Source: Albugo candida (Eukaryota). Taken from it: 64,000 bases of DNA. Shown here piece after piece: positions 860-62,472 of the stretch. How positions within the stretch are numbered: the first letter of the stretch is position 1; every line of letters starts with the position of its first letter. Below the pieces are notes generated by a model that was not told the DNA's origin, ran no database searches, and was given only the letters and a program-made list of their open reading frames with translations. A program made the position numbers and the translations under genes. The DNA lies in contig JBDOQK010000002.1 of NCBI GenBank assembly GCA_040437565.1, positions 558,001 to 622,000 on the forward strand, given 5' to 3'.

Positions 860-1153
860 TCGACAATCTACTGAATAGAATAAGTGCTTGTGTAGATATA
901 TATAACCTGATTGAATTGAGTAATTGAGTGTACCTGCTTCAACGAAATTATCGCCAGGGTTACACATTGATACCATGTCTAGGTATCCCCAAGACAAAAT
1001 CTTAATGTTGTAGTAGTCGGAATGTCAAGTTCAATAAATCCCGGAGCTTTTCCGGTGTGCTTTTTCTACTTGCTTCCAATTCCAAAAAAACATCGAATAA
1101 GAACCGGTATTCCACCCGCATACCACCCTCATCTGAGAACTTATTCTATCATC

Positions 1154-15649: not shown

Positions 15650-15783
15650 TTTCAGTGTACAGCTTTTACAAAGTCTCTGGTAGGCTTTCTTTAGAGCACC
15701 GTCCTTTAAATCTCGGTAGTAAAGAGCATACTATTCTTAGTAGTACGGTTACAATTGCAACACAATGAATAGAATCAATTTCG

Positions 15784-23763: not shown

Positions 23764-23861
23764 TTTGAATAAATAAATATCGAGGAGCTACATGTGCGAC
23801 GAGCCATTTGCTCTGATTGTGACAGAATTCAGACCAATAGTACCGTTTCTCGCTTAAACTT

Positions 23862-25491
23862 ATGGAGCATTTTTTCGTGGAATTACGACAACTAGACGAG
23901 ACACAAGAGCGTGTAGAGGCTGTCAGTGATGTGATGCTTAAAATAAGTGGATACAGTCTCGATGAAAGTGAAGATGATCCATCCGACGATTTTGAAGCAA
24001 CAAAGGCCAACATTGAGACAATGGTCGAGGCATGGATGCATGAACTTCGCACCAGCGATATCAATCGAGAACGCATTGCGTTTCTGTACGTGGCGAATCA
24101 CGTCCTACACAAGGTCAAGGGAGAAGAAAAGGATGGTCAACACGAGATGGTGACTCAATTGGTCGAAGCGCTCCGTCAACATTTGAATGAAGCAGTTTCT
24201 TTGGTAAGTAATTCTCCAATGGATCGTCAGGTGGTTATACGTTTGCTGGAATTATGGCATCAGAAAGTATTTTTCAGTGAAAACGATATTTTTGAATTGT
24301 GGAAATGTACAGGGGAAGAAATTCCTGATTTTTTGCAAGCCATTGCTAAACGCTCCTCACAGGATTTACAGAACGATCCATCTGAACACCATCAACACGC
24401 AAAAACGTTTTCTACTGGTGTGGACCCGAATGAGAAGGAGAAAATACCCGAGCCAGAGCTACCGATGAAACTAAATGCGCATTCAGCCAACCCTGTACTG
24501 GACGCGATGAAGCAGATCGATTATCGGATATCGGCGATCAAATATTTGAATGAGAAGTTGAATAAAGAACACCAGTATTTATTACATCATGGGACCGCAC
24601 GATACAAGACACCAGAAGATTTTTTGAGTGATCGAACAACAACGTGTCGTCAAATGAAGGATAATATCGAAGATTGCCTTCGCTTGGTCCGAATTCGCAA
24701 TGTATAGAAAGTCTTATCATTATCTCAAATATGCCGATTCAGTCTTTTGGTACACTGTAGAAATTCATGAGTGAGCTTCCAAATTTGCAGAAACAGCTTC
24801 AAATAGCTGTGGAGAAGATCAAGAGCGAAGAGGTACGTGCTTGGTATGCTGGACAAAATCATCTGATTTGTTCATAGGTTAGTGCAAGTGCAAAGGTCGA
24901 AACCAAGCTAGAGGTGACACGCTGCTATATTTTCTCGTATGTGAACATTCCTTCAATTTGTATGCCAGCAATGTGATATGATTGATATCGGCCTCGCGGA
25001 TCTATCCGAGCTTCGCGAAAAGTATCCAGAAGATGTAAGGCGCAATCGTATGAACTTTTGTGAATTTGCTCAATATTTTACGTTGAATCACCATACAGTG
25101 GGCAAAACAGGCATACCAATCCTCCCAACGCCGAAAAAAAAGGGAAGAGGAACAACGACAAAAAGAAGAAGAAATTGCTCGATTGCAGCAGGAAGCAATA
25201 GCTGAATCTGTGGTGCACGCCCAGAACCTCGAATCAGATATGAATCAAACTCGTAATGATTTGACGGCTTTGTCAAAAGGAATTGGTGAAGCTCAAGCAG
25301 AGTCAGAAGCAAAGACTGAAGAGGCACATGAGATGGTTTGGCATCCGTAAGTACCACCAGTATCATCATTGAGACTACGCTTTCAGGTGTCGCTGATGAA
25401 TTTCTTCTTCTATGTGTTAAACAGAGTGCTCAAGGAGTTGGTTCCTTTGCAGAGCTTGAATTTAGAATGGGAAGACTGGCGTGATCACTAA
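23862..25491 (+). CDS. CID/RPR (RNA Pol II CTD-interacting)-like domain protein, multi-exon
   Basis: MVEAWMHEL...RIAFLYVANHVL...VIRLLELWHQKVFF; further short exons and a coiled-coil exon lead to ...EWEDWRDH* (TAA 25489-25491). Confidence 0.75.
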
Positions 25492-28005: not shown

Positions 28006-28060
28006 TCAAAAAGTCTAATAAATTAGGTTAATATAGATCAATTACCGTTAGTGATCTGTA

Positions 28061-29500
28061 ATGAATGGAAAGCGTCCATGGATCGAAGAAGCATCAGTTG
28101 GAGAGAATCTTGAGGGAGAAGAACTACAAAATCATCAACCAAGAGATGTTGAATCGCAAAGAGATTTGAATGCTGAAGGGCCAACAAAAAAAGGAAAGTC
28201 CGGTTCAATAAGTAATGATACTGTATCAAGTCATCCACAAGAACGAGAAGAAGTGGTGGATGAAGTAACAATTCAAGATTTATCCTACGCTACAGAATCT
28301 TGGCAAGGCTTTAAAAAAGTCAATGAAGACCGCTTCATAAATCAATCGAAGCACCTTCTCGGACCTGTATTTGGGATATTTGATGGACATGGTGGAACTT
28401 TCACGGCGGAGTATCTTGTTCGAAACTTGATGAGAACCGTACGTTCATGTTGGAAACAAAAAAACCGTTCAGTCCAGGCGTCGTTCGAAAATATCTATAG
28501 GACATCTTGTCTAGAACGTGATCGCAGCGAGCGACTCAAGGCACAAATGCTGAGTCTTGCAGAACAAATCCGAGAGATTGGGACTCTTGTAAGTCAATCT
28601 CATGGCGAAGAGCAAGGTATTGAACTCGATGTACTTCGAAAAGAGTTGCTTTCTACCACTGAAGCTGTACAACGTGAAATCGATCAAATCGATAGGGAAG
28701 AACATGAACGTATGGATCATTATCACAAATTGGCTGTGGAAAACGAGACAAGAATTTGTGACGCAATTCGTGAAGGATTCATCCGAACTGACAGTAATTT
28801 AATTCAGAGACAGGATCTGAGAGATGGATCAACCGCCCTGATCGTGTGGTTCGTTGGGTATGGTACCAAACGCCTCCGCTTCTTTGTAGCTAATGTGGGG
28901 GACTGTCGTGCCGTGTTATGTCGGTATGGAAAAGCAGTACCGCTCTCAATAGATCATAAGCCTGATCGACCAAGTGAGAAACAGCGTATAACACAATCTG
29001 GAGGGTTTGTGGGTCAAATAGCCGGTGTCGCTCGCGTCTATGCGGCTGCAGGGGCTGGATTGGCACTTGGAGCATCCAAAACAGCGATATATCTTTCTGT
29101 ATCGCGCTCATTTGGAGATGTTAAACTGAAATTCCCGTCACCGATCGTGTCTGCAGAACCAGAAATCGCTGTATTTGATGTCGAGGAGGAGGACTTATTT
29201 ATAGTTATTGCATGTGATGGCATTTGGGATGTAATGAGCAATGAAGAGGTTATCGAAATCGGCTTGAAGCTCTTCGGTGATCCCAAGGCCGCTGCCGATG
29301 CAATTGTCAAGCAGGCTTACCGAAAGAAAAGTCAGGACAATCTTACGGTCAGCATAATCGAATTCAAATCACGAGAGCCGCAAGCCGCCGCAGCTTTAGA
29401 AAAGCAATCGAGAAGTACAAACCCTCTGCACGCGACAACGGCTGCTGAAGGAAGCTCACCAATAAACAATAGCGACGAGATTGATATGTTCACAATTTGA
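28061..29500 (+). CDS. Protein phosphatase 2C (PPM family)
   Basis: NEDR, FGIFDGHGG, DGSTA, ANVGDCRAVL, DHKP, SRSFGD, ACDGIWDV, SQDN. Confidence 0.95.
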   Translation: MNGKRPWIEEASVGENLEGEELQNHQPRDVESQRDLNAEGPTKKGKSGSISNDTVSSHPQEREEVVDEVTIQDLSYATESWQGFKKVNEDRFINQSKHLLGPVFGIFDGHGGTFTAEYLVRNLMRTVRSCWKQKNRSVQASFENIYRTSCLERDRSERLKAQMLSLAEQIREIGTLVSQSHGEEQGIELDVLRKELLSTTEAVQREIDQIDREEHERMDHYHKLAVENETRICDAIREGFIRTDSNLIQRQDLRDGSTALIVWFVGYGTKRLRFFVANVGDCRAVLCRYGKAVPLSIDHKPDRPSEKQRITQSGGFVGQIAGVARVYAAAGAGLALGASKTAIYLSVSRSFGDVKLKFPSPIVSAEPEIAVFDVEEEDLFIVIACDGIWDVMSNEEVIEIGLKLFGDPKAAADAIVKQAYRKKSQDNLTVSIIEFKSREPQAAAALEKQSRSTNPLHATTAAEGSSPINNSDEIDMFTI

Positions 29501-33692: not shown

Positions 33693-34538
33693 TCAAGTCG
33701 CCACATTCTCGAATTCTCGTACAATCTGCGCTGCGGGTGTGTCGGAATTTCCCACTGCATCTTTTGCCTGATTGTTATACACTGCAACTATGGCTTCACT
33801 GCAAGAATCACCATGATCAGTCGATTGACGTATCACCAGCAGATTTAAGCAAAAGGCATCAGGTGGAGAATTTTCCTGTTGATTTTCTTCCCATTCAATG
33901 TTGTAGAATCCTTGGGTGCTAGTGACCAATGCATCGTAAGGACTGAGATTTAATAGCTTACGTAGACTCGATACTCTTAGAAGTCGCGAATAAAGCATTT
34001 TTTTGTTCATGGTAGCCCCTGCAGCGCCATGGTCCACGACGACAATAAATTTTAGACGCTCGAGGAAAGAGATGCGAAACTTTTCTTTCTTAGTAAGCAT
34101 CAATTGCGTCCCCGGGCTTACGAGATCAATCACGATGTTGCCATTGATGGAATCGAAGCATTGGGTACTCATCGGTGAAGATAGTAATTGGATTTTGAAT
34201 TGAAACGACTCGTTTGCTTTCCAAATTTCGACATGTCTTTGGAAAATAGTGATTGCATGATTATCCTCATTATTCGGTCTTATCTGAGTATTGATTTTTG
34301 TTCCAGATAGTTGAATTGGTGACTGATTCGTAATGCTTACTTCGAGCGCGTTATGTCGTTGGGAAAATGAAACGTGGGCAGTCATATTTTGCAGTATCGC
34401 AGATTCCATGACTGAATTCATGACCTTCATGGTTTCCGTGCTCCTACTGATACTTTCTTCAATTCGTGTTGTGACTGAATCGAACGATTCTGTCAATCCA
34501 TTCGCATATTGCTGCAAGACCTGCGCAACTTGCTCCAT
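33693..34538 (-). CDS. Hypothetical protein (281 aa): N-terminal helical segment, then a beta-rich domain
   Basis: Intact ORF with natural composition; LEVSITNQSPIQL suggests a beta-sandwich; no family recognised. Confidence 0.6.
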   Translation of the reverse strand: MEQVAQVLQQYANGLTESFDSVTTRIEESISRSTETMKVMNSVMESAILQNMTAHVSFSQRHNALEVSITNQSPIQLSGTKINTQIRPNNEDNHAITIFQRHVEIWKANESFQFKIQLLSSPMSTQCFDSINGNIVIDLVSPGTQLMLTKKEKFRISFLERLKFIVVVDHGAAGATMNKKMLYSRLLRVSSLRKLLNLSPYDALVTSTQGFYNIEWEENQQENSPPDAFCLNLLVIRQSTDHGDSCSEAIVAVYNNQAKDAVGNSDTPAAQIVREFENVAT

Positions 34539-34968
34539 TATGTAAATAAGTATCTGACCGGATAACGTTGACCAATTGGACAGAGTTTATAATGAGTTGA
34601 ATAATCAATCTTTAGCCTACTTATCACATATACAAAATGAAGCATATATCTATTCGAATTGGAGCCAGGTCAAGCTACAGCCTGTTTATCACAAATAAAC
34701 CCTGCAGGTAAACAGCGGCATATCGATCACAACAATGAATAACACCATATGCGTAGAGCTTTGATTCGCATGATTCGTCGATCCAATCCTGTGGATCAGA
34801 ATTCAACTAGNNNNNNNNNNNNNNNNNNNNNNNNNNNNNNNNNNNNNNNNNNNNNNNNNNNNNNNNNNNNNNNNNNNNNNNNNNNNNNNNNNNNNNNNNN
34901 NNNNNNNNNNCCATATGCGTAGAGCTTTGATTCGCATGATTCGTCGATCCAATCCTGTGGATCAGAAT

Positions 34969-40730: not shown

Positions 40731-41092
40731 TGTCGAAAATGCACATGAAAGAAATAAACAGTGAGCCTTTTCATCTAACGTGCTGAGTCATTGAGGTAGA
40801 AGCACTGCTGTCAACATAATTGAAAGGCTATTATATCAAACAATTGGCTAATGGCCTGATAACCCGAATGCAGTCGATTTTGAGTTCTATCATATAAGAT
40901 TACCCTACATTACCACTATTTATGACAGCAAAGCAAAGACCAGCATGATGACACGCACAAGAGATAGTATTGTATTTAACATCTCGTGACCGGAACTCAG
41001 CGGTGCGAATCTTGATCCGAACAAAAGGATCCATTAGCTACGAACATTAAATCCGACGAGTCTTGTCACTTTGTGAGTCCATACCTTGAAGA

Positions 41093-43396
41093 ATGAGTTT
41101 TGTTTCGCCTTCTGAATCGTCATTTCTACCACTGAATACCGATGGCAGTCGTCTTGGCCCCATATCCGAGATTGGAAAATTATCATTAATGCAACCAACA
41201 TCGTTTATATATGCCACACCAATGAGCAAGAATCATAAAAGCTGGCCTTTCGTCGTTGTATTTATTAGCTCTTTGATCGCTTCGTTTGGGTACATTTTTT
41301 CCCAACTACCAGAATATAGATTCCATATTCGATATCAGCTCTTTGCAATCATGGGCACAAAATTTGAAAGTGGTGAATGGGTAGGAGGCCACCGCGAAAT
41401 TGCAGAATTCATGTTTTTATTTCTTTCAATCGGGTTACCAACTCTGGTAGCTGGCGTTGCCCTTTCTTACGCAGATGCATTGCCACCAGTGCCAAAAGGT
41501 GTCTACCGGACCTTTGTGCGCTTTCTCAAGAAAAAAATTTGGGCCGAATATCTCACAGCTACATATTCGGAAATATTTTGGTTTACTTTCTTTTTTGCAA
41601 TGAATGCAATTTGGTTTGCAGCCAATTATGCAGATAGAGTAAAAAAAGTTGAAGAAACAGGAGATAAGATCGATAGCAAAGCAAGGTGGCAAATGCTCGG
41701 TTATGTATTAGGATTCAATGCCGTATTGTGCTTTTCGGTCTTGATTATCCCAGCAACAAGAAACTGTTTTTGGATGATCTCAATGGGTGTGGATTACTCG
41801 CATGGTATCAAGTATCACCGCTGGATCGGTATTTTCACAATTTTCATGGTTTTATGTCACGCTTTGCCATATTACAAGCAATGGCTAGCTGCAGGGACAT
41901 TCATGAAATCTAGTTTTCCGTGCTTTGATTGTGAAGTGGAAGAGAGCAAACGCAGGCTGCAAAATTTTTCAGGGCAACTTGCACTATTGTGCTGTCTCAT
42001 CATCGGATTGACCTCTTTGCCAGTTGTACGTCGTAATTACTACTCATTCTTCTACTGTGCTCATCATTTGGCTATCGTGGTGGTGATTTGTGGCGTCTTG
42101 CATTTCTCTTCATTTGTGATGTGGATGTACCCGGCGGTCTGTTTATATGCGATCCATCGAATTCTAGCGTTCTCGCAAAGCCGTGTCGCAGCCGAAGTAG
42201 TCGAAATGGAAGCCGTCCCGGGTGAAGTCACTCGGCTTGTTTTTCGAAGAAGCCCAGGAAAAGCAGGGCATTACCATGCGGGCCAATTTGTCTATCTCCG
42301 GATTCCAGTTCTTTCCAAGGCGCAGTGGCACCCATTCACCATTAGTTCTTCTCCGATTGAGTACGAAGACACATTCACCGTGCATGTGAAAGCCGTCGGA
42401 AAGTGGACCAAATCGCTATATGGCTTGGCGATTCAAGTCCGTGAAGAGCGAAAAGTCCCGCTGGTATATGTTGATGGATTCTACGGAAAAATGTCGGATG
42501 ATTTCCAGCATTACCCAGTACTGCTTCTGGTCGCTGGTGGTATTGGGGCGACACCCGTGATTAGTATTTTGGGGAAAATTTTGGATTGCTTTCGCAATAA
42601 CGATCCAGCATTCGAAAAAACACAAGTATATTTTCAATGGACGTCCCGCGAGATTGGAATTTTTCACGAGTTTGAACCTCTGCTTGACGCAATTGAAGAA
42701 TTTGATCCGAATCACACACGAATTAGAGTGCGACTATGTTTCACCGGTGACCAGCACTTGGGTGGAGTCAACATTCCAACTGGCATCACATTGAAGCCTC
42801 TCGATGATACGAGTGGTATTCCCACGCGCCCATTTTACCAATCTTCTCGATCCGTTTCGAGACAAGTCTGCTTATTCATTGTCACATTTCTTGCAAGTTT
42901 TATTTCACTGATTATGACTCGGTATAATTACCCTTTGCTCGGGACCAACCGTGAGAAACAAGGAAGATGGCCACTACAGCGGCTAATGGAATTGGTGATG
43001 ATGTTAGTAGGCGCGTCCGCAGCCTGGATAGTAGCAGTAACTGAGCCAAAGCCCCGTTCAGTGAGTCGTGTTGATAAGAACAAGTTTGCGACGCAGTACA
43101 CAGAATCCTGCAAGCGTAGCGACTTTGGTGATCGGCATCCTACTTCCTGCTATTCGCAGACACTGTCATTCGAAGGCGAAGACATTCAATTTAAACATCC
43201 AGTTTGCCGGTCTCGACTGAACATCAGGGAATCGTTAGCCGATGTTGTGAAGGAACAATCGCATAATCACCAGCTACAGGAGACTGGAATTGGATTGTGG
43301 GTTTCGGGACCAATGGGGTTGATTCACAATGTTGAAACGGAGGCAGCCCGCTATGCCGGTATTTATGATGTACATTATGAAGAGTTCCAAATGTAG
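41093..43396 (+). CDS. Ferric reductase / NADPH-oxidase superfamily (FRO/FRE-like) flavocytochrome
   Basis: Heme His pairs YHRWIG..CH and AHH..LH; FAD-binding WHPFTISS; VDGFYG; NADPH-binding VAGGIGATP; SGP; terminal HYEEF. Confidence 0.93.
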   Translation: MSFVSPSESSFLPLNTDGSRLGPISEIGKLSLMQPTSFIYATPMSKNHKSWPFVVVFISSLIASFGYIFSQLPEYRFHIRYQLFAIMGTKFESGEWVGGHREIAEFMFLFLSIGLPTLVAGVALSYADALPPVPKGVYRTFVRFLKKKIWAEYLTATYSEIFWFTFFFAMNAIWFAANYADRVKKVEETGDKIDSKARWQMLGYVLGFNAVLCFSVLIIPATRNCFWMISMGVDYSHGIKYHRWIGIFTIFMVLCHALPYYKQWLAAGTFMKSSFPCFDCEVEESKRRLQNFSGQLALLCCLIIGLTSLPVVRRNYYSFFYCAHHLAIVVVICGVLHFSSFVMWMYPAVCLYAIHRILAFSQSRVAAEVVEMEAVPGEVTRLVFRRSPGKAGHYHAGQFVYLRIPVLSKAQWHPFTISSSPIEYEDTFTVHVKAVGKWTKSLYGLAIQVREERKVPLVYVDGFYGKMSDDFQHYPVLLLVAGGIGATPVISILGKILDCFRNNDPAFEKTQVYFQWTSREIGIFHEFEPLLDAIEEFDPNHTRIRVRLCFTGDQHLGGVNIPTGITLKPLDDTSGIPTRPFYQSSRSVSRQVCLFIVTFLASFISLIMTRYNYPLLGTNREKQGRWPLQRLMELVMMLVGASAAWIVAVTEPKPRSVSRVDKNKFATQYTESCKRSDFGDRHPTSCYSQTLSFEGEDIQFKHPVCRSRLNIRESLADVVKEQSHNHQLQETGIGLWVSGPMGLIHNVETEAARYAGIYDVHYEEFQM

Positions 43397-44233: not shown

Positions 44234-46697
44234 CTAGTTCCGTACGACATTTTTTTTGAAAAATTTGGGAGCTATTTCAACCAACCATTCCTTTTCAAAT
44301 GCCATTACAGAGCGAATATAATGTTTACTTGTAAACACTAGTTCAGAATACACAACCCACTGAGGTGGTGATTTCCGCTGAAATAATGTTGAAGATGGGT
44401 GAATCTGGACCAGTTCCGACCCACCGATGATCGGTTTATAAACATTTTGACGATTATCTTCTCCGTTATATCGCATAGCAGTATTCAAAAAGAATCCCGC
44501 CAAAATGCTCTTTTGTAGTGACTGCGTATTTGGAAAGTCGGAACTGATTGGAAGATGCAAATTTTCAAGATAGTTTCGCAGTTGTTCGCGCACACTCTCG
44601 ACTTTTCGCAGAGCTCGAAAGTTGATGAAATGATCACGACACCATTTTTCGCTCTGTTTTTGACCGCATTGTTTATATCCATTGTAAATATTTAATAACG
44701 TGATTTGATCCCCATCGCTTGAGACAAATTTTGCTCGAGATTGAGCCGCTTGCTCTTTTTTGTCGCGTGGAAAATAGAAAATGGATTCAATGCATTGCAT
44801 AGCTACCACGCTAAGAGCCTCTTCCGCACAACCTAACTCAGCTGCCTTTAGTAGCATGACTGCAAACATCGGACTCACTGGAAGTCCGGCCATCTGACGC
44901 CCGCGTTTTGTCAACTTTCCATCTATATCAAACGCTTCGAATGCATACAACTTCTCCATTGCTTTGATTAGCGACGAGACTTCGGGTTTCTCAAGAAAAT
45001 CAAAACTCAGTATATCATCTATACCCATTGACTTAAGCTGCAGAACAACAGCTTCGAGACTCACACGCTGAATGTCCGGAATCGTCCGATCGGAAAGTTT
45101 ATCGAAGGTGTTTTCTGGAAATAATCGATAACAAACGCCTGGTGCTTCCCGTCCGGCCCGACCCGTACGTTGCCATGCCTGGGCTTTTGATACTGGCTCA
45201 ATTTGGAGCATTTCCACACCGCTGTTGGGTACATACGAACGTTGTTTGACTAGACCTGTGTCAACAACGTATCGAACATCCTTGATGGTGATCGAAGTCT
45301 CGGCAATATTCGTTGCTAATATCACCTTACGTACGCCATGAATTACTGGCTCAAATACTTTCATTTGTTGCTCCCGAGGCATAGCTGCATATATTGGACA
45401 TACCATCAACTTTAATGCTGTGGGAGGCAGTGTCTTAGCATATTGTTCCAATAGAGACTGGAGGTTATCTATGTCTTCTTGACCAGTCAAAAAGACCAGT
45501 ATACTTCCATTTCTTCGTTCTTCAAGATGAATTTGCAAAATTGTTATCAACGCTGCGTCTTGATAGTCTGGAAGCGTTTTCAACGAGTAAAATAGATCGA
45601 CTGGGTATTGCCGACCAGGAATACGAATAACACGAGGAGTAATACTCTGATCAGTAAAGTAACGTTTGAATAAACCGACATCCAAAGTCGCCGACATGAC
45701 TATAACTTTTAAATCGGTTCGACAGCGTAGTGCACGTTTCAAAACGCCAAAAAGAATGTCCGTTTGTAAAGTCCTCTCATGTGCTTCGTCTAGAATTATG
45801 ACCGNNNNNNNNNNNNNNNNNNNNNNNNNNNNNNNNNNNNNNNNNNNNNNNNNNNNNNNNNNNNNNNNNNNNNNNNNNNNNNNNNNNNNNNNNNNNNNNN
45901 NNNNTTAATGCTGTGGGAGGCAGTGTCTTAGCATATTGTTCCAATAGAGACTGGAGGTTATCTATGTCTTCTTGACCAGTCAAAAAGACCAGTATACTTC
46001 CATTTCTTCGTTCTTCAAGATGAATTTGCAAAATTGTTATCAACGCTGCGTCTTGATAGTCTGGAAGCGTTTTCAACGAGTAAAATAGATCGACTGGGTA
46101 TTGCCGACCAGGAATACGAATAACACGAGGAGTAATACTCTGATCAGTAAAGTAACGTTTGAATAAACCGACATCCAAAGTCGCCGACATGACTATAACT
46201 TTTAAATCGGTTCGACAGCGTAGTGCACGTTTCAAAACGCCAAAAAGAATGTCCGTTTGTAAAGTCCTCTCATGTGCTTCGTCTAGAATTATGACCGAGT
46301 AGCGGTCAAGACATGGATGTAATAGTGCTTCTCGGACCAGCATACCGTCGGTAAGGAATCTCACTTGGGTTCTATTGCACGACATATCTTCGAAACGCAC
46401 ACTATATCCAACAATTCCACCAATTTTATCTCTATTTATTTCATCAGATACTCTTTGAGCTACTGTAATAGCAGCCACTCGACGAGGTTGCGTGACTGCC
46501 ATTCGTACAGAGGGCATTTTATCGAGAATGTATTGCGGTACTTGAGTTGTTTTACCACTTCCTGTTTCACCAAGTAAAATAACAACTCGACTATTTTCGA
46601 TTGCTTGAATTATCCGAGACCGATGGCAATGAATGGGTAGTTTTTCTCGATCGAGTCGTAATTGCACCGCATCCTGTGACTTGTGTACTCGGTCCAT
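44234..46697 (-). CDS. DEAH-box RNA helicase, DHX33-like (about 656 aa after removing the overlap duplication)
   Basis: GETGSGKTTQ, TQPRRVAA, DEAHER, MSATLD, FLTGQEDI, ATNIAETSIT, QRTGRAGR, HA2 and OB regions; 45905..46297 repeats 45412..45804. Confidence 0.9.
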
Positions 46698-46751
46698 GCA
46701 AATCAATGTTATATACCTCTAACTTTCCGGTTACAAACACGAGGAAGGACA

Positions 46752-50619: not shown

Positions 50620-51905
50620 TCAGTCATCGTATTCGATAGCTGGTATTCGAAATTTGCTAAACAATATCACTGGACGATCCCATTGTGTCACACCAAAGGT
50701 CTTCCGATACCTGAATTGGCCTTTTGGAGCAAGCAAGTGGTGCTCAATAGCCTCTGCAATGTTGTGTTTGAGTTGAATTTTGTAAAAGCTTCCAGGAACA
50801 ACTTGCCGAAGACGCTTCAATCTCTTCTCGGCATGCCTGTGTGTTATCAAACTTATGAGTCATGTAATGATTACTGCTACTACTATACCTGTAGCATTTC
50901 CATTTCTGCAGTTCGACAAGCAAATGATCAGTCGAGTCGGATAAATATTGCAGAAATTGTTCTAGACCATCATCACCATGGTTTATATGAATCCACATGA
51001 GTACACTAAAACACGTCACAAGTGTGAATCGAGCTTGACCATCCGTCTGACCGTTGCAATTCTCCCGACAAAAAGTTTGCAATAGTCTATTTGACGCAAC
51101 TGTATCAACCAAGTCTCCAGTCTTGAAACAAATAACGTCACCACCAATAGCATCGACAGTTTTCATGGTGGCCTTCTTGATCAACTTGGAATCAATATCG
51201 ACCCCAAGCACGAATAAATGTCGTCGGCTTTTCTCTTCTTCCGCTAGGCTTTTTTTAATAGGTGGAGGAGGTGTGTTCTGCGCAACGCACGTCAGCACCG
51301 ACAAAGCGCTCTCAGCCGCTAGCGCTTTTGCTACTCGCTTTGAGATACCTGATCCGCCCGCAAGAAGCTGATCGTTTCTGTAGACGCTGCATTGATACCA
51401 TTTTTGACCGCTTTCAACCTCCTCAGTTTTAAACCGAAAATTAATGTTGATTTTTTGGCGCTGACTAAGATCATTTAGTCTGCTAACACATGATATATCA
51501 AAGCTTTTCGCTTCACGTTCATGACCCGAATCAGAAAACTCGTCTATTCCTACTAGCCTTCGATACAATGCGATGGTCAAATTGCCTACTTGTAACCTTG
51601 CATCAGGTGACAGGTCTATTGAAAGCAGTGGATATTGTCAAACCTTCATTACAGCCAACATCAAGGAGAAAAGCAGGCCTTCCAGCATCTTGTTCGGGAA
51701 TACGAAACAGATAATTTCGGAGTGCTTGAATAGTATCTTGGTTTAAAAAGCGCAAACGTTCGCTGACGAGATTGAAGCGGTAATAGGAAGGAAAATTACC
51801 AAAGACATGACCACTTTCGTCAATAGAATAAGTTTCAGTACTATCGTTTTCGTGAGCAGTTTCACTATCATCTTTTTTCGAATTCGAATGAGCGGCTTTC
51901 GTCAT
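50620..51905 (-). CDS. Bin3/BCDIN3D-like RNA 5'-phosphate methyltransferase with inserted dsRNA-binding domain, 3 exons
   Basis: FGNFPSYYRFN, LDVGCNEG, LGVDID..LI, CFSVLMWIHINHGDDGL..FL, LLVELQKWKCYR; dsRBD-like block at about 51293..51493. Confidence 0.88.
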
Positions 51906-53137
51906 AAGATATGCGAGGGATCGATATTGATATCAAGAAATATTAGCACTAACATATTCATATGTAATTCGAATGGAGCTGCTCGCTCAGTTATACGTAT
52001 ACGTCACGTCGGGCTAATCGTTCATTCGCACTGATCGAATTGGTGCACATCTACAAGGACTACATTAAACTACTTCTGAGACAAATTTAATTCGACATTG
52101 TTGAATACTACATGTGATTTTATTTTCCGTCATCGCAAAGCATATAAAAACGTAGATCGATTGCTAATGTTTAGAACCTGCCGCAATATTTTTGAAAACA
52201 ACAACGGTGACCATTAGTCTTTTACTGACGTAAAAAGCCTGAGATGCAGGTGCTGACGACCACTAAAGTCTGAACATGGTGGCAGCTATTTTCGGGAAAG
52301 GACAGCTGGCTACTTGGTATCGTAAAGTACTGGCCCATGTTCTGAATCGACACTCATTTTGGGAAGATCCAGTGAAAAATGACGTGTNNNNNNNNNNNNN
52401 NNNNNNNNNNNNNNNNNNNNNNNNNNNNNNNNNNNNNNNNNNNNNNNNNNNNNNNNNNNNNNNNNNNNNNNNNNNNNNNNNNNNNNNTTTATTTTCCGTC
52501 ATCGCAAAGCATATAAAAACGTAGATCGATTGCTAATGTTTAGAACCTGCCGCAATATTTTTGAAAACAACAACGGTGACCATTAGTCTTTTACTGACGT
52601 AAAAAGCCTGAGATGCAGGTGCTGACGACCACTAAAGTCTGAACATGGTGGCAGCTATTTTCGGGAAAGGACAGCTGGCTAATTGGTATCGTAAAGAACT
52701 GACCCATGTTCTGAATCGACACTCATTTTGGGAAGATCCAGTGAAAAATGACGTGTACGTAGTCATCGCTTGCGACAGCTACTTCGAGTTTTGATTACTT
52801 CTGCAAATAACGAGCTTTTTCGGACCACATATTGTTCAAGTTTTAATATAGATGAGCTACGAAGAGTCAGCACACACCGTATCCTTCCCAGTATACAAAT
52901 TTGCCAGTATATGTATTATTTATGTATCATCTGGTTGTGACATGAGCAAACGATCGTAAGACGGTCCAAAATTTCAATCTTTCGAATGCGTATCAATCAG
53001 AACAAATCAGACCAGAGATGATTACTACTTAGTCATCTCAAATTCTTATTTGAGCTCACGTCAACCAAGCTGTGAGCGGCACAGTGTTGTTACGTGATAC
53101 CAGAATCACAGCGACACAAGAGGACACACCTTGACTA

Positions 53138-54478
53138 ATGTCACCTAACCAAGCCTTTGGGGCGCCTGATACCATACCTGGCTGGAAGGATCATCTTTTC
53201 ACAAATGAGATTTACCTGTCTTCTTCAGTACGAGATGTATTACTGCAGGAAGGAGAGCAAATGGTAACGCAATTGCTGTCTATCGCAAGATCAACGCGTT
53301 CGGTACCATGGGAGCTAGTACAGAGAAAGAATCGCATCTCAATATTCAAGAACAGCGATCAAACCACTATTCATTCGCCTTGCAATACTCATGCGGAGAG
53401 TACCGCTCATGGGGAGCTGACTGATATTGCAAAATGGAATGTAACCTCAACCACAGACAGCTTTAATGAATTGATGCAGATGATTTCGGGAGATTTTGTC
53501 GAAGGAAAAATACTTGCAAACTTGCTGACTCCGACGGAGTCGGATCCGTATGAATTCATCGGCTTAAGATGGGCATCATTCAAGACCTCCATTCCAACTG
53601 AAGATGACTATAACATGATACTGTTAGAATCTTCAAAATTCACAGTTGATGCATCTGGCCAAAGGATCGCCTGCAGCACCCTCAAATCAGTCAAGTCGAG
53701 TATCGTAGACAAGCTGGTATGTATCCGACAAGACTCCCATTCACTGAGAACGCTTCCACTCACCGGCTTCACTTTTCAAGCGACCGAAATTCCACGAAGG
53801 ATCAAATTTACGTATTCATGTTATTTTGCGACTCCTAATAACTTTCCTAATTGGGCAGTTAATATCGGGATGCAAGTAGAGGTTGAACAACGGATTCAGG
53901 GAAGAATCAGATTCTTTGAATCTTGTCGAGCAAGAGAAGCTACAGCCGCAGTTACGATGGCAACTCAAAAACACATCGACGATGACCTTCTGATGCATCA
54001 TTCGTCGAGGAATGTAAAAGCGGTACCATTTGTGGAACATGTAGCATCAGAGACTGTAATCAAGTCATATAAGGATGGATTTGAATCGGAGCGTCGTAGT
54101 AAAGGCAGAGTATTAAGCCCTATCAAAGATAGCCAATCCGCAACACCTTCAATGTGTGTCTCAACTAGACCTGTCAACAGGAAAGCATTATTCGAAGCAA
54201 TCAGTCAATCACAAAAGCTTATCGCCCAAGCAGAAGCTGCTAACGCATTGGCACAACATGCCCGTGATATGTTCTTGGAGCAATTCAGTGGAAATAATGC
54301 TCTCGATCAAAATAGTCAACACTGCGCGGATAAGCAGCACGGGTTGATTACAGGCTGCGGTACAAAATCGAAGAAATTTTCCATTGAGCAGCAAGGAACT
54401 GATTGTCGGCGGATTCCCGCTCAACGAAGAAATAGTCGACCCTACAATTTAGTTTTAACTCGTCAAGAAGCCTTTTAA
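53138..54478 (+). CDS. START-like lipid-binding domain protein (oomycete-type)
   Basis: W.LV..K.RISIF, G.L.DI, IL..L..PT..DPY..IGLRWASF, D...LE; low-complexity C-terminus with no FYVE cysteines. Confidence 0.7.
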   Translation: MSPNQAFGAPDTIPGWKDHLFTNEIYLSSSVRDVLLQEGEQMVTQLLSIARSTRSVPWELVQRKNRISIFKNSDQTTIHSPCNTHAESTAHGELTDIAKWNVTSTTDSFNELMQMISGDFVEGKILANLLTPTESDPYEFIGLRWASFKTSIPTEDDYNMILLESSKFTVDASGQRIACSTLKSVKSSIVDKLVCIRQDSHSLRTLPLTGFTFQATEIPRRIKFTYSCYFATPNNFPNWAVNIGMQVEVEQRIQGRIRFFESCRAREATAAVTMATQKHIDDDLLMHHSSRNVKAVPFVEHVASETVIKSYKDGFESERRSKGRVLSPIKDSQSATPSMCVSTRPVNRKALFEAISQSQKLIAQAEAANALAQHARDMFLEQFSGNNALDQNSQHCADKQHGLITGCGTKSKKFSIEQQGTDCRRIPAQRRNSRPYNLVLTRQEAF

Positions 54479-54843: not shown

Positions 54844-57800
54844 ATGTGTGCTTTGTTCTATGACTATAGGGTACAGATACCCGAAGGTCAACATCAAGTG
54901 TGCTGCGAGTGGAATGAATCAGATGCGATCTTGGCAGTAGGGATGGAAAATCACGAGATACATTGCTACACAGATGAGGTGAATAGAAGACTTATATCGT
55001 TAAGTAGATCTTACCATCTTCGTTTTAGGGTGAAAAATGTGTGGGCACTACTTCCCATTCTAGAGCCGCTGATATTGTTGCAATGGCATGGCAACCGCGC
55101 AGTGGCGCCCTTGCGGTTGGATGGAGTGACGGTATCAAGATTATTTTGAGCTTCATCGGAATAATTTGTGATGTCTTGTCAATAATGAGTATGTAGGAAT
55201 GGTATCAGTTTGGCTATACAAAAGTGGACAAGCCCGTGAGGTCAATTCCCCTCATACTACCCGTGTCAACCTCGTAAAGTGGTCCCCGTCTGGTAATCGG
55301 CTTTTCACGTCTGATGAGAATGGACTTTTCGTGGTCTGGAAAGTGGATAGTCGATCACAAATTACGTTGGCGACCCGATACACGCGTCAAGGGAAGTTCA
55401 CACATTGTGTGTTTGCGATGAGCGTGGCACAACGAGCGAAAGAGAAAAAGAGGTGAGCAGAAAATGTTTTGGAATGGCTCCATAGTCGTACTACGTTTTG
55501 ATTATATATAGCGAGCTTTTTTCACAGCATGTCTGCCCTTCGTTCTTCTTTGGTGGCGAACTTGGATCGGTGCATCACGCTGATGACTTGGGCCATATCT
55601 CGGATTTACAGGTGCTCAATCATGCTATTGATGCAATGGTTTTCAACGAAGAGAACGACAGTCTCATTGTTATCACGAGAGGATCTCAATTGATAGTTTT
55701 CCAAGTTCAAGCGAACGATAGGAGCGTAAAAGTCACCCACAGAGTGAAATTGAGCCTTGCGGGTGACAATAGTTTACGTGAAGCGAAATGGGCTGGAACA
55801 GTACTTTTGGCGATTGCCTCTGGAGAATCTTTGATTCGATTTTGGAACGTGCAGACGGAGCAAAGTAGCTTCCTCAGCCTCCCCAAATCTGAGAGCATCT
55901 TATCACATCAAGTGAACACGATCGATTTTAATGCAAAAAGGCGCATTTTGGCCGCTGGAACAGCACAAGGTTTTATTTTGTTGTGGCGATGTACGACAGT
56001 GAAGGCTATAACAACAGAAAGTAGCAAACCATACGACAATCTCGACTATCGCTGGGATCTTCTCTTCACCTTTGATCAATCTGTGAGTGTGTTGAAGATA
56101 TGCTGGAGCCCCATTTTTCCAGCATTGTATGCCAGCACAGAGAAGGAAGTTCTTTTGCTGCATGAAGGTACTATGCAGCATGTCTTCAACCATGATATAT
56201 CCGTCATACAAAATCGACCGTCATCCTTTGTAATTGAAAAATTTCAGGATGGAACCCTCACACAAAGCATGGTGGAGACAGCCTTCAAAAGCATAAAAGG
56301 AATCTCGCACGATGGACTGTCCGTTGTTGTATGGAATGGGTCACATGCCGAGATTTATGACATACGGAGCAGTCTTGTAAAACGTCTCAACATTTTTGAA
56401 TGTTCTTCCAACTCGATAGTATTAAGCGGTGACTCTATTTATCGTACTTCAGGCAATCATGTTGAGATTTGCAACCTGCAGGGTATTGTAAAAAACACGA
56501 TCTCATTTACCGAAGCTGAAGGTCAACCACAACTTCTTTCTATCAACAACAAGTTTTTAGCAGTTGGTACTGATCGTTGTTCTATACGAGTATACGATTT
56601 GTCACGTCGTGAACCAAAAGCTACAGGGAGTATGGGAAATTTGTCGGTCGCGCTAGATGGAAACTTGGGATCGAGAGAAAAAGCTGGAAAGAAAACAAGC
56701 GATTTAAGCCACTGCTTTGAGATGTGTATGATATCTGTCAATGCCGACGGAACAAGAGTATGTATCATTGCCGAAAAACTCGAAGGCTCGATGCATTTTC
56801 GACTACCAGCAAGCAAATTGGTTGTGTTCCAAACCGAGCTAAATATTTTTCAGGAATACGATTTTGGGCGAAATCGTATGCTTATTTCGTCGTACTTTGA
56901 TCCGCAAGAACCACGACTTCTTGCTTGCGAAACGCGCAAAATCCGCCACGAGCGAGATTCAGCCATGGAGAATTCCACCAAGGGTATTTCAAACAGCGAC
57001 ATTGGTGCAAGACGGGACGAAGCTGCACAAAGCGGAACAGCTGTTATCGCAGAGAACGAGATAACAATCTTGTTTGCATCGAATGAGCATGGCCTTTTGA
57101 TTCATGATAGTTTCGAGTTGGATCAAAAATACAGCGCATTATTGGGACTTCATGTTCCACGTATCTTCCTTGTCGCTCAGGTAGACGCAGCCGAAACAGT
57201 TTTGACAAATTCAGAAAAGACCGAATCTGCAAGGTCTTCAACAGTATCGTACCTCCGTACAAAGACAATGCGAGACTTTGTCGGATCAGATAAAATGGAT
57301 GAAACCTCGAGACAGGCCATGATTGATTTCTGTTATTACATGACAATTGGAAACATGGACGAGGCGTATCGCTCTGTTAAATTGATCGAAAACGCATCTG
57401 TCTGGGAAAATATGGCCCATATGTGTGTCAAGACCAAGCAACTTGATGTTGCTCAAGTATGTTTGGGGAACATGGGTCACGCTCGGGGAGCCATTGCCGT
57501 ACAAGATGCCCGACAAGAACCTGAAAGTGAAGCTGCAATCGCTATGGTTGCTATCCAACTCGGCTTGCGAGACGATGCGGCGCGATTGTATCGTGAGTGT
57601 GGAAGGTACGATTTATTGAACAAGCTTTATCGGGCCAGTGGAATATGGTCCAAAGCAATATCTCTTGCTGAGAAAAAAGATCGCATTCATCTAAAGAATA
57701 CACACTATCATTTTGGACGTCATTTCGAGGATCTTGGAGACGTTGATGAAGCTATAAAAGCATACGAAGACGCAGGAACTCATCAAAAAGATGTACCAAG

Positions 57801-60800
57801 AATGCTCTACAAAATGGGTAAAATGGAGCTGTTGAAAAAGTATGTTGACAACAGCAACGATAATGATGCTCTCATTTGGTGGGCACATTTTGAAGAAAGT
57901 CAAGGTCATTTTGATCGTGCAATAGAGGCATACAAACGTGCCAAAGACTNNNNNNNNNNNNNNNNNNNNNNNNNNNNNNNNNNNNNNNNNNNNNNNNNNN
58001 NNNNNNNNNNNNNNNNNNNNNNNNNNNNNNNNNNNNNNNNNNNNNNNNNTTTGGACGTCATTTCGAGGATCTTGGAGACGTTGATGAAGCTATAAAAGCA
58101 TACGAAGACGCAGGAACTCATCAAAAAGATGTACCAAGAATGCTCTACAAAATGGGTAAAATGGAGCTGTTGAAAAAGTATGTTGACAACAGCAACGATA
58201 ATGATGCTCTCATTTGGTGGGCACATTTTGAAGAAAGTCAAGGTCATTTTGATCGTGCAATAGAGGCATACAAACGTGCCAAAGACTATCTAAGTCTAGT
58301 TCGTGTGCTCTGCATCGAAAATGATTTTCAGCAAGCTGTACAAATTGTGAAAAAAACCGAAAACCGCGCAGCTGCGTACCACTTGGCTCGACAATTTGAG
58401 GCAATAAATGACATTGGGAGTGCCATTCATTTCTTTGCATTTGGTGGGTGCTATAATCATGCGATTCGCCTTGCAAAGAGCCATCAAATGGATTCGGATC
58501 TTATGGCCTTTGCTGTCATGAGCAAACCGAGAGAGATACTTGAATGTGCTAGATACTTTGATCAAAAAGGAGAGTATGAGAAAGCAGTGCAATTGTATCA
58601 TAAAGGAGGAGATGGCTCACAAGCATTAGAATTGTGTTTCAAGGCACAACTCTTCGATGAGCTGCATTATCTGACAAAACAATTAGGTATCGAACAAATT
58701 CCACAAACATTGCTGAAAAAAAGTATCGACTTTTTTGAAAAGAATGATCAGTATGAAAAAGCTGTGCATTTGGGTCTGATGGCGGGCAGAATACTGGAAG
58801 CGCTCAATCTTTGCATAAATCATGACGTAAGGATTACGGAAGAAATGGCCGAAGAAATGACTCCAGTGAAAGGTGAAGAAAATGCTCTGGATAAAAAACA
58901 ACGCAACGAAATTCTACTCAAGCTTGCCAAATGTTGCAAACACCAAGGGTCTTATCATCTTGCGACTAAAAAGTACACACAAGCAGGAAATAAACTCAAG
59001 GCTATGAAATGTTTATTGAAATCGGGTGATGTTGAGAAGGTAATTTTCTTTGCTAATGTCTCGCGCAATCCCGAAATATACGTACTGGCTGGACATTATC
59101 TGCAAACCCTAAATTGGCACGAAGATGCAGATCTGTTCAAAACCATTGTCAATTTCTACATTAAAGCGAAAGCTCTGGAGCCGTTATCAAGCTTTTATGT
59201 GTCTTGTGCTCAGACGGATATTGAAGACCATCAGGACTATCATAAAGCAGTCAAATCTCTGCAGGAAGGGATCAAAGTCGTTTCGAAAATATCGGGTTCT
59301 AGTAGCAGTGCCCTGCGTGAACGAGTAACAAGAGGCCTGCAGCGTCGTGTAGAATTGATTGATCGTTTTGTATCGATACAAAATCAAACTTCTTCCAGAA
59401 ATGATGCAAGCGCCGAGACCATCCCATTGCTGGAAGCATTGCTCGAAGAACAAGACCTTGCCGTCACTATCCAAATTGGCGATGCATGTGGGCTACTAGT
59501 CAGGTTATGCTATGATGAAAAAAACTATGGAAAGTGTGCAGAAGTATTAAGCTTGATGAAGAATGATAAACAGCTAGACGTCAAGAAGTATGTCGATTCG
59601 AACGTTTTGCAAGTTCTGAAGGAAAAGAATTTCTTTCATATTAATGACAAAGCGGGTCGGCAAGTTGGAGTGAAGCGAAATGAACTAGCAGGAAGTAATA
59701 TGAGGCTCGNNNNNNNNNNNNNNNNNNNNNNNNNNNNNNNNNNNNNNNNNNNNNNNNNNNNNNNNNNNNNNNNNNNNNNNNNNNNNNNNNNNNNNNNNNN
59801 NNNNNNNNNATTTCTTTGCATTTGGTGGGTGCTATAATCATGCGATTCGCCTTGCAAAGAGCCATCAAATGGATTCGGATCTTATGGCCTTTGCTGTCAT
59901 GAGCAAACCGAGAGAGATACTTGAATGTGCTAGATACTTTGATCAAAAAGGAGAGTATGAGAAAGCAGTGCAATTGTATCATAAAGGAGGAGATGGCTCA
60001 CAAGCATTAGAATTGTGTTTCAAGGCACAACTCTTCGATGAGCTGCATTATCTGACAAAACAATTAGGTATCGAACAAATTCCACAAACATTGCTGAAAA
60101 AAAGTATCGACTTTTTTGAAAAGAATGATCAGTATGAAAAAGCTGTGCATTTGGGTCTGATGGCGGGCAGAATACTGGAAGCGCTCAATCTTTGCATAAA
60201 TCATGACGTAAGGATTACGGAAGAAATGGCCGAAGAAATGACTCCAGTGAAAGGTGAAGAAAATGCTCTGGATAAAAAACAACGCAACGAAATTCTACTC
60301 AAGCTTGCCAAATGTTGCAAACACCAAGGGTCTTATCATCTTGCGACTAAAAAGTACACACAAGCAGGAAATAAACTCAAGGCTATGAAATGTTTATTGA
60401 AATCGGGTGATGTTGAGAAGGTAATTTTCTTTGCTAATGTCTCGCGCAATCCCGAAATATACGTACTGGCTGGACATTATCTGCAAACCCTAAATTGGCA
60501 CGAAGATGCAGATCTGTTCAAAACCATTGTCAATTTCTACATTAAAGCGAAAGCTCTGGAGCCGTTATCAAGCTTTTATGTGTCTTGTGCTCAGACGGAT
60601 ATTGAAGACCATCAGGACTATCATAAAGCAGTCAAATCTCTGCAGGAAGGGATCAAAGTCGTTTCGAAAATATCGGGTTCTAGTAGCAGTGCCCTGCGTG
60701 AACGAGTAACAAGAGGCCTGCAGCGTCGTGTAGAATTGATTGATCGTTTTGTATCGATACAAAATCAAACTTCTTCCAGAAATGATGCAAGCGCCGAGAC

Positions 60801-61173
60801 CATCCCATTGCTGGAAGCATTGCTCGAAGAACAAGACCTTGCCGTCACTATCCAAATTGGCGATGCATGTGGGCTACTAGTCAGGTTATGCTATGATGAA
60901 AAAAACTATGGAAAGTGTGCAGAAGTATTAAGCTTGATGAAGAATGATAAACAGCTAGACGTCAAGAAGTATGTCGATTCGAACGTTTTGCAAGTTCTGA
61001 AGGAAAAGAATTTCTTTCATATTAATGACAAAGCGGGTCGGCAAGTTGGAGTGAAGCGAAATGAACTAGCAGGAAGTAATATGAGGCTCGATGAGGATCA
61101 TAAAATGGCCAATTGGGATATGAAGGATGAGGTAGGAGATGAAGTGAATGAAGAAATCGAAGAGGATACGTAG
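54844..61173 (+). CDS. IFT140: Intraflagellar transport protein 140 (IFT-A; WD40 + TPR), interrupted by two gaps with overlap duplications
   Basis: M.LFYDY; WD40 N-terminus; MRDFVG; IGNMDEAYRSVKLI...VWENMA.MCVKTK.LDVA.VCLGNMGHARGA; DRIHLKNT; HLATKKYTQAGNKLKAMK.LLKSGD.EK.IFFA.VSR. Confidence 0.96.
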
Positions 61174-61314: not shown

Positions 61315-62472
61315 ATGCCGGAGAATCTCGTGCATGAATCGAGCGACATTGATGTCTGCAACACATCATATTGGACTTGCCCTGCATGTAATTGCATCAT
61401 GGTTGTGGATTCCGAAGCATTGCAACAAGAATCTGATGCAAGTCCTAAAAATATTGGGACCGAGTTCCATTCGAAAGCCATAGAGGCGAAAAAATTTCCG
61501 CGCTGTGGTGAATGCAATAGGTGACGTGGTATAGTTTATATACATAATCAATACGTTTTGATGATGTTTGTGCACGTTGACAGCAAAATACCGGCTCGAA
61601 TTGGAATCCATGATTTTCAAGCAAAAATTGACGACGAAAAAGAACGCATGATTTCGTGGCAAAATCATACGAACGAAGCAGCGGTGATCTTGCAATCATT
61701 CACACGCGTTTTGTCAGCTCGTCAAGAGTACAATCGGCGCATATACAGGAAAAATCGTATCCTGATGAAAAAGAACGCGGCAGCTACACTTATTCAGAAA
61801 CGTATTCGGGGCTTAACATGCAGAAGGCGATGTTTTATCAAGCGATGCTTTTTACTAATCAAAACGATGCATCCATTGATCTTTGTTTATACTTTAACAC
61901 ATCATTCTGTCGAAGATCACTTTCCGTGGTATAGATGCCAAAGTAATGTGGATAAACTTCATAATAAGTACTGCGCAATTCAGCTTCGGAATGGAACTCT
62001 TTGCGCCATATTGGCTGCTGAGAATAGTGTGATCGAGTTTTTGAAATACATGCTACTTCGGGAGAGGTATTTGGTCTGCCGGATGCAAGCAGCCTGGAAA
62101 GGCTTTGTTCAACGACGAATGTACCTAAAGCTACACCGAGAGAGAGGTTGGCTGAGATCTTTGCAATTTTCCTATGCAATTAAAATACAGCGAGCATACA
62201 GGAGCTACGTTGCTAGAGCGCATATCAAAATCATGCGACAAAATAAGCTTCTCGAGAGACACAAGCAGACATATTTATGGGAGAGAAAACAGAGGTTATC
62301 AGCGGAAAAGCTGAGGCAAAGTCACGCACAAATACAGAGCATGTACCAGTTACAATACAGGTATGATCGAACAATGAGACAAGTAGGCGCTCCCGGTTTT
62401 AGCATGAAGGCCGACACCAGTAAAACATTACGAAAGCCACGATCAAGCGCCAAAATATTCTGTATCACATAG
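61315..62472 (+). CDS. IQ-motif protein with N-terminal CxxC...CxxC zinc finger
   Basis: Exon 1 WTCPACNC...RCGECNR; IQ-like motifs LQSFTRVLSAR, IQKRIRGLTCR, MQAAWKGFVQR, IQRAYRSYVAR. Confidence 0.75.

Follow-up and report, generated by a model that had tools for sequence, protein, structure and literature searches.

MePCE, Bin3 and Bmc1 cap the gamma-phosphate of 7SK, U6 and telomerase RNA. BCDIN3D is to our knowledge the only enzyme that caps a 5'-monophosphate, and its substrate range is disputed between tRNA-His and microRNA precursors (pre-miRNAs). Plant HEN1, which carries N-terminal double-stranded-RNA-binding domains (dsRBDs), is a small-RNA 3'-end 2'-O-methyltransferase whose S-adenosylmethionine (SAM)-dependent domain acts on the end of a short duplex. 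In human Dus2, a dsRBD is the major tRNA-binding module according to the available passages of PMC6451096. Here we describe a gene of the oomycete Albugo candida in which a dsRBD is inserted into the catalytic fold of a BCDIN3D-like RNA methyltransferase. The gene lies on the minus strand at 50620..51905 of a 64,000-nucleotide stretch of contig JBDOQK010000002.1 (assembly GCA_040437565.1, positions 558,001 to 622,000), hereafter the window, in which G+C is about 0.38-0.46.

Specifically, the coding sequence join(51905..51644, 51585..50889, 50836..50620), with its stop codon at 50622..50620, specifies 391 amino acids and corresponds to the NCBI protein P0004 (hypothetical protein ABG067_000418, Albugo candida, 391 amino acids). 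Exon 1 (51644..51905) encodes the N-terminal region, an aromatic GNFPSYYRF segment (Y41, F44 and R50) and SAM motif I, LDVGCNE(G), at residues 81-88. Exon 2 (50889..51585) encodes the helix that follows motif I, the complete insert, motif II and the core of the methyltransferase fold. The two introns are short and bounded by GT..AG: intron 1 (51586..51643, 58 nt, phase 1) splits the codon of G88, the last of motif I, and intron 2 (50837..50888, 52 nt, phase 2) splits that of R320. Relative to human BCDIN3D, the insert spans 51224..51544 (residues 102-208) and is made up of a linker, a dsRBD and a second linker, with the dsRBD proper at 51293..51487 (residues 121-185), downstream of motif I and upstream of motif II. 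The latter, LGVDID (51191..51208, residues 214-219), contains D217, the counterpart of human D110. The Pfam Bin3 domain (50653..51028, residues 274-381) runs across intron 2 and encompasses FSVLMWIH (S281 and W285), Q314, the basic helix K317-R330 and R374. All 231 residues of exon 2 recur unchanged in P0004 (100% identity), which also agrees exactly with our gene model at both junctions. The intron 1 junction gives LDVGCNEGNLTIAL, the same in P0004 and in orthologues, the junction peptide LDVGCNEG/NLTIAL aligning to the orthologues free of gaps; the intron 2 junction peptide WKCYR/HAEKRL is likewise the same in P0004 and gap-free against the orthologues. Upstream of the gene, a run of 100 N bases (52388-52487) stands between two 269-nt copies (52119-52387 and 52488-52756) with 99% identity to each other, and the interval 52119-52756 has the look of a gap in the assembly whose edges were duplicated rather than of a biological feature. 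This interval lies about 200 bp upstream of the methyltransferase start codon, which makes the promoter region uncertain.

The sequence-only reading of this DNA had quoted, as a dsRBD located between motifs I and II, a peptide that is indeed present in the minus-strand translation of 50891-51583, which contains ...CVSRLNDLSQRQKININFRFKTEEVESGQKWYQCSVYRNDQLLAGGSGISKRVAKALAAESALSVL... Translated, the interval 51293-51493 (67 amino acids) aligns with profile positions 2-66 of 66 of Pfam dsrm (PF00035). The E-value of 5.2e-12 and the score of 46.6 bits, where the curated cut-off is 23 bits, put the match far beyond chance. On the full protein the domain covers residues 121-185, and the dsrm scans of this domain proper gave E 2.6e-12 / 1.1e-11, with scores up to 47.6 bits. 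An AlphaFold2 model of P0004, built from a 20-row alignment, reached a mean predicted local distance difference test (pLDDT) of 82.2 and a predicted template modelling score of 0.71, with pLDDT blocks of 80-97 over the dsRBD, about 62 at residues 191-200 and low confidence at residues 1-32 and 103-113 (below 50 at 103-113). Modelled alone (79 residues, 19-row alignment), the dsRBD reached a pLDDT of 88.9. Both models, read with DSSP, show the alpha-beta-beta-beta-alpha order expected from the sequence-only reading: a helix at 119-130, strands at 135-143, 149-157 and 160-167, and a helix at 170-190. A fold search of the isolated model against the PDB returned 21 matches at E<=0.001, and the 50 best rows, judged by their descriptions, are dsRBDs or dsRBD-bearing chains, those listed including PKR, Staufen, ADAR2, the Xlrbpa-dsRNA complex 1di2, TRBP, Loquacious, HYL1, Rnt1p and bacterial RNase III, with query-normalised template modelling (TM) scores of 0.65-0.80 for the top neighbours. 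The mitoribosome chains in the same set presumably represent the large-subunit protein that bears a dsRBD. Sequence profile, modelled fold and structural neighbours all identify the insert as a real dsRBD.

It is scarcely credible that the real protein lacks the insert, as it would if this were an intron missed by annotation, a mis-assembly or a gene-model fusion. Artefact-like exact duplications and an N-run do occur in the assembly near the gene, and two Phytophthora cactorum gene models (P0195 and P0197) disagree inside the region. Against this, the insert lies wholly inside exon 2, in frame within one exon and with a full-length dsrm score; P0004 contains it; and its position inside the methyltransferase fold means that it cannot stem from a fusion of neighbouring genes. 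It is conserved at the protein level, with frame and domain kept, in 31 related proteins from independent assemblies and several oomycete orders, and a second Albugo-like sequence (P0006), 70% identical overall, retains 48 of the 67 dsRBD residues. The concern that the insert might be spliced out can accordingly be set aside.

The host enzyme belongs to the Bin3 family: the full protein matches PF06859 over profile positions 1-109 of 109 (E 1.4e-18, 67.9 bits; curated cut-off 27 bits), so that the dsrm and Bin3 profiles both stand above their curated cut-offs. Neither exon 1 nor exon 3 had a Pfam match of its own, and the domain limits were taken from full-length P0004. Among PDB sequences searched with phmmer, P0004 matched human BCDIN3D (6l8u) at E 2.3e-32 and MePCE (5una) at E 6.7e-9, and Foldseek placed the model closest to 6l8u (E 6.9e-15, target-normalised TM 0.81-0.86), with a TM of about 0.55 to MePCE. 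The best insert-free named matches, among the matches listed, are animal entries annotated as RNA 5'-monophosphate methyltransferase (BCDIN3D). In the stretch before R374 (beta6-beta7), a single one-residue gap separates the protein from 6l8u, whereas alignment to MePCE takes two more gaps, 3 and 2 residues long; in the model, judged without superposition, no helix is predicted between strands 363-369 and 375-380, where MePCE has its alpha-7 helix. Sequence and predicted fold support a BCDIN3D-like rather than a MePCE-like enzyme, as the sequence-only reading had proposed.

The residues on which human BCDIN3D depends are largely identical in Albugo. By the 6l8u alignment, the SAM-binding residues correspond, human to Albugo, as R46 to R50, D72 to D82, G74 to G84, N76 to N86, D110 to D217, I111 to I218, D135 to D245, F136 to L246 and S165 to S281. 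Those of the 5'-phosphate pocket correspond as Y37 to Y41, W169 to W285, Q198 to Q314 and R257 to R374, with the stacking F40 as F44, and those of the basic helix alpha-6' as K201 to K317, R204 to R320, R208 to K324, R209 to R325, R211 to K327 and K212 to R328, plus R118 as K225. In total, 21 of 21 human residues named as contacts or mutated are identical or conservatively replaced. In the available passages of the human structural study (PMC7026607, the text of which prints N76 as 'D76'), D110 binds the ribose hydroxyls, the basic alpha-6' helix and R118 are the proposed readers of the acceptor helix, and the majority of the mutants had little or no activity left on tRNA-His, with R118A falling only to about 70%. 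The catalytic, 5'-phosphate-binding and basic RNA-binding residue sets are therefore intact in the aligned Albugo sequence.

The insertion site can be placed precisely within this fold. The phmmer alignment to 6l8u falls into two stretches, query 28-101 on chain 32-99 and query 209-380 on chain 102-263, leaving about 107 residues (102-208) without a counterpart in human BCDIN3D; the two stretches flank the insert and the solved human structure has nothing there, in line with the earlier statement that the human enzyme has no dsRBD. Under the numbering given in the construct description, in which the chain index equals the native number plus 8 before an internal deletion and the native number after it, the break falls between human native residues 91 and 102, that is, in region 92-99. 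Liu et al. (2020, PMC7026607), in the passages available, call this region 'flexible, less conserved' and deleted it together with both termini, the truncated enzyme retaining about 25% of its activity. The dsRBD occupies this change-tolerant loop, between the helix that follows motif I and strand beta-2. Judging from the Rossmann methyltransferase fold, the loop presumably lies on the side of the sheet that faces away from the SAM pocket. The linkers share 0-4 identities with the non-Albugo proteins, and the combination of a conserved dsRBD core with variable linkers suggests a folded domain on flexible tethers.

The same layout recurs across the oomycetes. An exhaustive HMMER search with exon 2 returned 399 proteins at E<=0.001, and a Pfam scan of 21 picked matches found dsrm together with Bin3 in 14, Bin3 only in 6 and a multi-dsRBD, Dicer-type architecture in 1. 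A word-indexed search with P0004 gave 92 matches, 38 of which carry both PF00035 and PF06859; all 23 of these that have species names are oomycetes (Albugo, nine Phytophthora species, Bremia, Plasmopara, Peronospora, Peronosclerospora, Pythium insidiosum, [Pythium] brassicae, Globisporangium, Nothophytophthora and Aphanomyces), with oomycete orthologues 39-41% identical over 92% of the Albugo protein. A further profile, built from the four most divergent insert-bearing proteins to look for named carriers outside the oomycetes, added Saprolegnia, Thraustotheca, Achlya and more Aphanomyces: among the best 120 of its 432 matches, 28 carry dsrm and Bin3, 18 of them named and all oomycetes, 10 without a species name, and no named non-oomycete has the combination. 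The sole named oomycete row without a precomputed dsrm domain in the P0004 search was P. cactorum P0195, which is without 22 dsRBD residues that P0197 of the same species has, yet still matches the second half of dsrm; P0197 is in turn without 25 other residues, located before the dsRBD. This exception is a gene-model difference, and the layout is common to every named oomycete match, from Saprolegnia to Phytophthora.

Disagreement between gene models extends to other species. Lengths within P. cactorum (P0194, P0195 and P0197) are 352 and 549 amino acids, the latter in two models; they are 376 versus 492 amino acids in P. kernoviae (P0181 and P0179) and 403 versus 538 in Pythium insidiosum (P0187 and P0183). 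Domain surveys that use single annotations will miss some of the dsRBDs. Spacings between motifs I and II, counted by regular expression over 157 proteins, give a rough picture only, and the count mis-scored P0004 itself, in which 'SFDIS' in the linker fitted the motif II pattern. Both motifs matched in 76 of the 157, with a spacing of 19-33 in 54, 42-80 in 11 and 115-176 in the other 11; P0027 (spacing 115), P0037 and P0059 (spacing 129) carried Bin3 only in the Pfam scan, and the rest of the 42-80 group is of low complexity by eye. In one further protein, P0033, the insert is about as long (129 residues separate the motifs) but gives no dsrm match even at E<=1; this protein may carry a decayed dsRBD in a lineage near, and possibly outside, the named oomycetes. 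In a tree of 44 proteins chosen from 255 (14 named oomycetes, 9 other insert-bearing proteins and 21 insert-free ones), computed by a quick method with the insert columns dropped and with Shimodaira-Hasegawa-like approximate likelihood ratio test (SH-aLRT) support only, 20 insert-bearing proteins form one group (SH-aLRT 94), and P0022, P0033 and P0035 fall in an unresolved fork with three insert-free rows. The insert label needs 2 changes on this tree, which neither shows nor excludes a single origin, and we make no claim of an origin before the oomycetes.

The layout has been catalogued before. Table 2 of Matari and Blair (2014, PMC4030286), in the part available, lists PITG_03262 as a 'dsRNA-binding protein w/ Bin3' under RNA silencing, a filing made from domain content only, along with a second Bin3 gene without a dsRBD, PITG_14915, which may be a MePCE-type paralogue. 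Orthologues bear names such as 'Double stranded RNA binding' and 'Pre-miRNA 5'-monophosphate methyltransferase' in NCBI and UniRef, so that 'undescribed', the word used in the sequence-only reading, overstated the case. Within the literature searched, PITG_03262 was found in no paper besides PMC4030286, and no functional study of the dsRBD-BCDIN3D layout was found, subscription journals lying outside the coverage. The protein is absent from the passages searched of a P. capsici RNA interference paper (PMC12857978), of a paper on the distribution of Bin3 (PMC8917221) and of a Phytophthora small-RNA gene survey (PMC4791657). The layout is thus catalogued but uncharacterised in function. What the present analysis adds is where exactly in the fold the insert sits, that the enzyme is a BCDIN3D orthologue whose active site is intact, and that the layout is conserved across the oomycetes.

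In dsRBDs generally, RNA-contact region 2 includes a histidine in the beta1-beta2 loop and region 3 is a K-K-x-A-K motif that starts helix 2. Region 3 is present in Albugo as S169-K170-R171-V172-A173-K174, which aligns with the GSG..KK.AK..AA.SAL segments of ADAR2 and PKR. Across the 31 insert-bearing proteins, S169 and A177 are kept in all, L124, N125, Q129, K170 and A173 in 30, A181 and L182 in 28, K174 in 27 and K171, the position of Albugo R171, in 25. With moderate confidence we favour a reading in which the Albugo protein is a BCDIN3D orthologue and puts a methyl group on the 5'-monophosphate of a helical RNA, probably tRNA-His, the tethered dsRBD anchoring the helix. In this scenario, a canonical dsRBD with two flexible linkers of about 20 residues would have been inserted, in an oomycete ancestor, into the loop before strand beta-2. 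As in the model of the human enzyme, the catalytic pocket would accept a helix by its 5' end, the terminal nucleotide being unpaired or mispaired, and a single methyl would be transferred from SAM to the 5'-monophosphate of the structured RNA, while the tethered dsRBD would grip the A-form helix further along the same molecule, raising affinity and possibly selecting helix length. The likeliest main substrate would be cytoplasmic tRNA-His, through the 5'-phosphate of G-1, with the dsRBD anchoring a tRNA arm as in human Dus2. All tRNA-His-related catalytic residues are kept, which makes tRNA-His the most economical guess at the substrate; the window contains no tRNA gene, and hence no tRNA-His gene.

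Several points weigh against this reading. The region 2 His-Arg found in 25 of 31 relatives is G147-Q148 in Albugo, and position 176, a lysine in 25 of 31, is a leucine; RNA binding by the Albugo copy may accordingly be less canonical than that of its relatives. The placement of the dsRBD relative to the catalytic domain in the model cannot be trusted across the low-confidence linkers. Human BCDIN3D, in the available passages on it, methylates a tRNA-His mini-helix efficiently without a dsRBD, and its docking model contacts the acceptor helix only. Since the human enzyme needs no dsRBD, tRNA-His alone leaves the retention of the domain unexplained, and this retention hints at a broader or different helical substrate. 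The loop 2 Gly-Gln and the missing helix 2 lysine would also fit a domain that no longer binds RNA and instead serves protein-protein contact, dimerisation or localisation, roles taken by certain non-canonical dsRBDs, while the methyltransferase works as in animals; so would structural neighbours such as TRBP dsRBD3 (the Dicer interface of 4wyq), the PACT D3 homodimer and Staufen dsRBD5, and the insert of P0033, similar in length and unmatched by dsrm. We judge such a loss of RNA binding quite unlikely, because S169, K170, K/R171, A173 and K174 are kept in 25-31 of 31 proteins, which is unexpected if RNA binding had been lost, because the loop 2 histidine is kept in 25 of 31, and because Albugo itself retains K170, R171 and K174.

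A substrate other than tRNA-His is a possibility that we hold tentatively: the enzyme might methylate Dicer products or hairpin precursors, such as small interfering RNA duplexes or pre-miRNA-like hairpins, at the 5'-monophosphate, the dsRBD measuring or holding the duplex, and so control Argonaute loading or stability. Proteins of small-RNA pathways typically carry a dsRBD of this kind, its helix starting with an intact SK(K/R)xAK, the structural neighbours include the dsRBDs of TRBP, Loqs, HYL1, R2D2 and Dicer, and a Dicer-dsRBD-type protein of 1074 amino acids (P0062) is among the sequence matches of the insert, although likeness among dsRBDs says nothing of pathway. The dispensability of a dsRBD for human tRNA-His recognition also leaves room for another helical substrate in oomycetes, a Phytophthora orthologue has been filed under RNA silencing (PMC4030286, on domain content), and action of BCDIN3D on pre-miR-145 is cited in the available passages of PMC5435960 and PMC6542536. 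Conversely, no result of our analysis points to a small-RNA 5'-end pathway, and the word methyltransferase does not occur in the searched passages of the small-RNA survey PMC4791657. A more specific version, drawn by analogy, would make the protein a 5'-end counterpart of HEN1, its dsRBD docking Dicer duplexes, hairpin precursors or tRNA-derived helices and its core methylating the 5'-monophosphate so as to gate Argonaute loading or stability; we consider it unlikely. The dedicated small-RNA 5'-end modification pathway suggested in the sequence-only reading thus finds no support here, the tRNA-His residues of the catalytic domain being all kept, and a role in small-RNA pathways is possible but speculative. 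Methylation of tRNA-His with a dsRBD anchor remains the reading that we prefer.

Among the other genes of the window, a DEAH-box RNA helicase at 44237-46718 (minus strand; two open reading frames with DEAD, Helicase_C, HA2 and OB_NTP_bind domains) lies about 4 kb from the methyltransferase, and no link between the two was seen. An IFT140 gene (55486-61170, plus strand) is split into three overlapping open reading frames matching TPR_IF140-IFT172 profile positions 1-199, 121-486 and 246-486, with two copies of the C-terminal TPR domain; the region contains direct repeats that are 100% identical (57712-57949 with 58050-58287, and 58429-58728 with 59810-60109), probably a partial tandem duplication made by the assembly, or else a very recent real one. 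Two tandem genes for RSN1/OSCA-type calcium-permeable channels (17722-20301 and 21370-23787, minus strand) both contain RSN1_TM, PHM7_cyt and RSN1_7TM. Pfam further identifies ordinary eukaryotic genes, namely an amidase (2396-4375, minus), a calpain-type protease (12018-14522, minus), a CID-domain protein (23841-24704, plus), a PP2C phosphatase (28055-29497, plus), a ferric reductase/NADPH-oxidase-like protein (41090-43393, plus) and an IQ-motif protein (61525-62469, plus). The long open reading frames at 107-1024 (minus), 14534-15730 (minus), 15769-17649 (plus), 33696-34586 (minus) and 53135-54475 (plus) had no Pfam match at E<=1e-5.

The gene is an ordinary, conserved gene of housekeeping type, visible in databases, and a lineage-wide variant of a known enzyme rather than a new kind of system. 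Its interest is that a built-in duplex-RNA reader, kept through the oomycete radiation, offers a natural experiment on the RNA choice of BCDIN3D. If the dsRBD only strengthens the binding of tRNA-His, it would join Dus2 as the second case of a dsRBD put to work on tRNA. If it instead shifts or widens the substrate to small-RNA duplexes, oomycete small-RNA biology and sequencing methods would need revisiting, and a true counterpart of HEN1 would imply a class of small RNAs hidden from sequencing based on 5' ligation, conceivably including RNAs exchanged with the host plant.

Among known systems, HEN1 is comparable in working principle only: it belongs to another methyltransferase family, modifies the 3'-terminal ribose and not the 5'-phosphate, and has no entry in the Pfam and PDB match lists of the Albugo catalytic domain, where Bin3 and BCDIN3D stand. 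MePCE, Bin3 and Bmc1 have the Pfam Bin3 family and fold in common with the Albugo protein, MePCE being a much weaker match in both sequence and fold than human BCDIN3D. PITG_03262 has, in the available part of PMC4030286, the same domain order as the Albugo protein (methyltransferase, dsRNA binding, Bin3), and its entry there and those in NCBI and UniRef are of a catalogue kind, with no word, in the passages available, on the interrupted fold, BCDIN3D orthology or function. Human Dus2 is an RNA-modifying enzyme in which the dsRBD is the main binder of structured RNA (PMC6451096, available passages), the working principle proposed here, but it belongs to an unrelated catalytic family and its dsRBD is C-terminal with an N-terminal extension, not inserted in a loop. 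Human BCDIN3D is the best match to the Albugo protein in both sequence and fold and has the same Rossmann fold; the Albugo protein differs from it in an unconserved N-terminal tail of about 30 residues, predicted with low confidence, and in the roughly 107 extra residues that stand in place of the short disordered loop 92-99.

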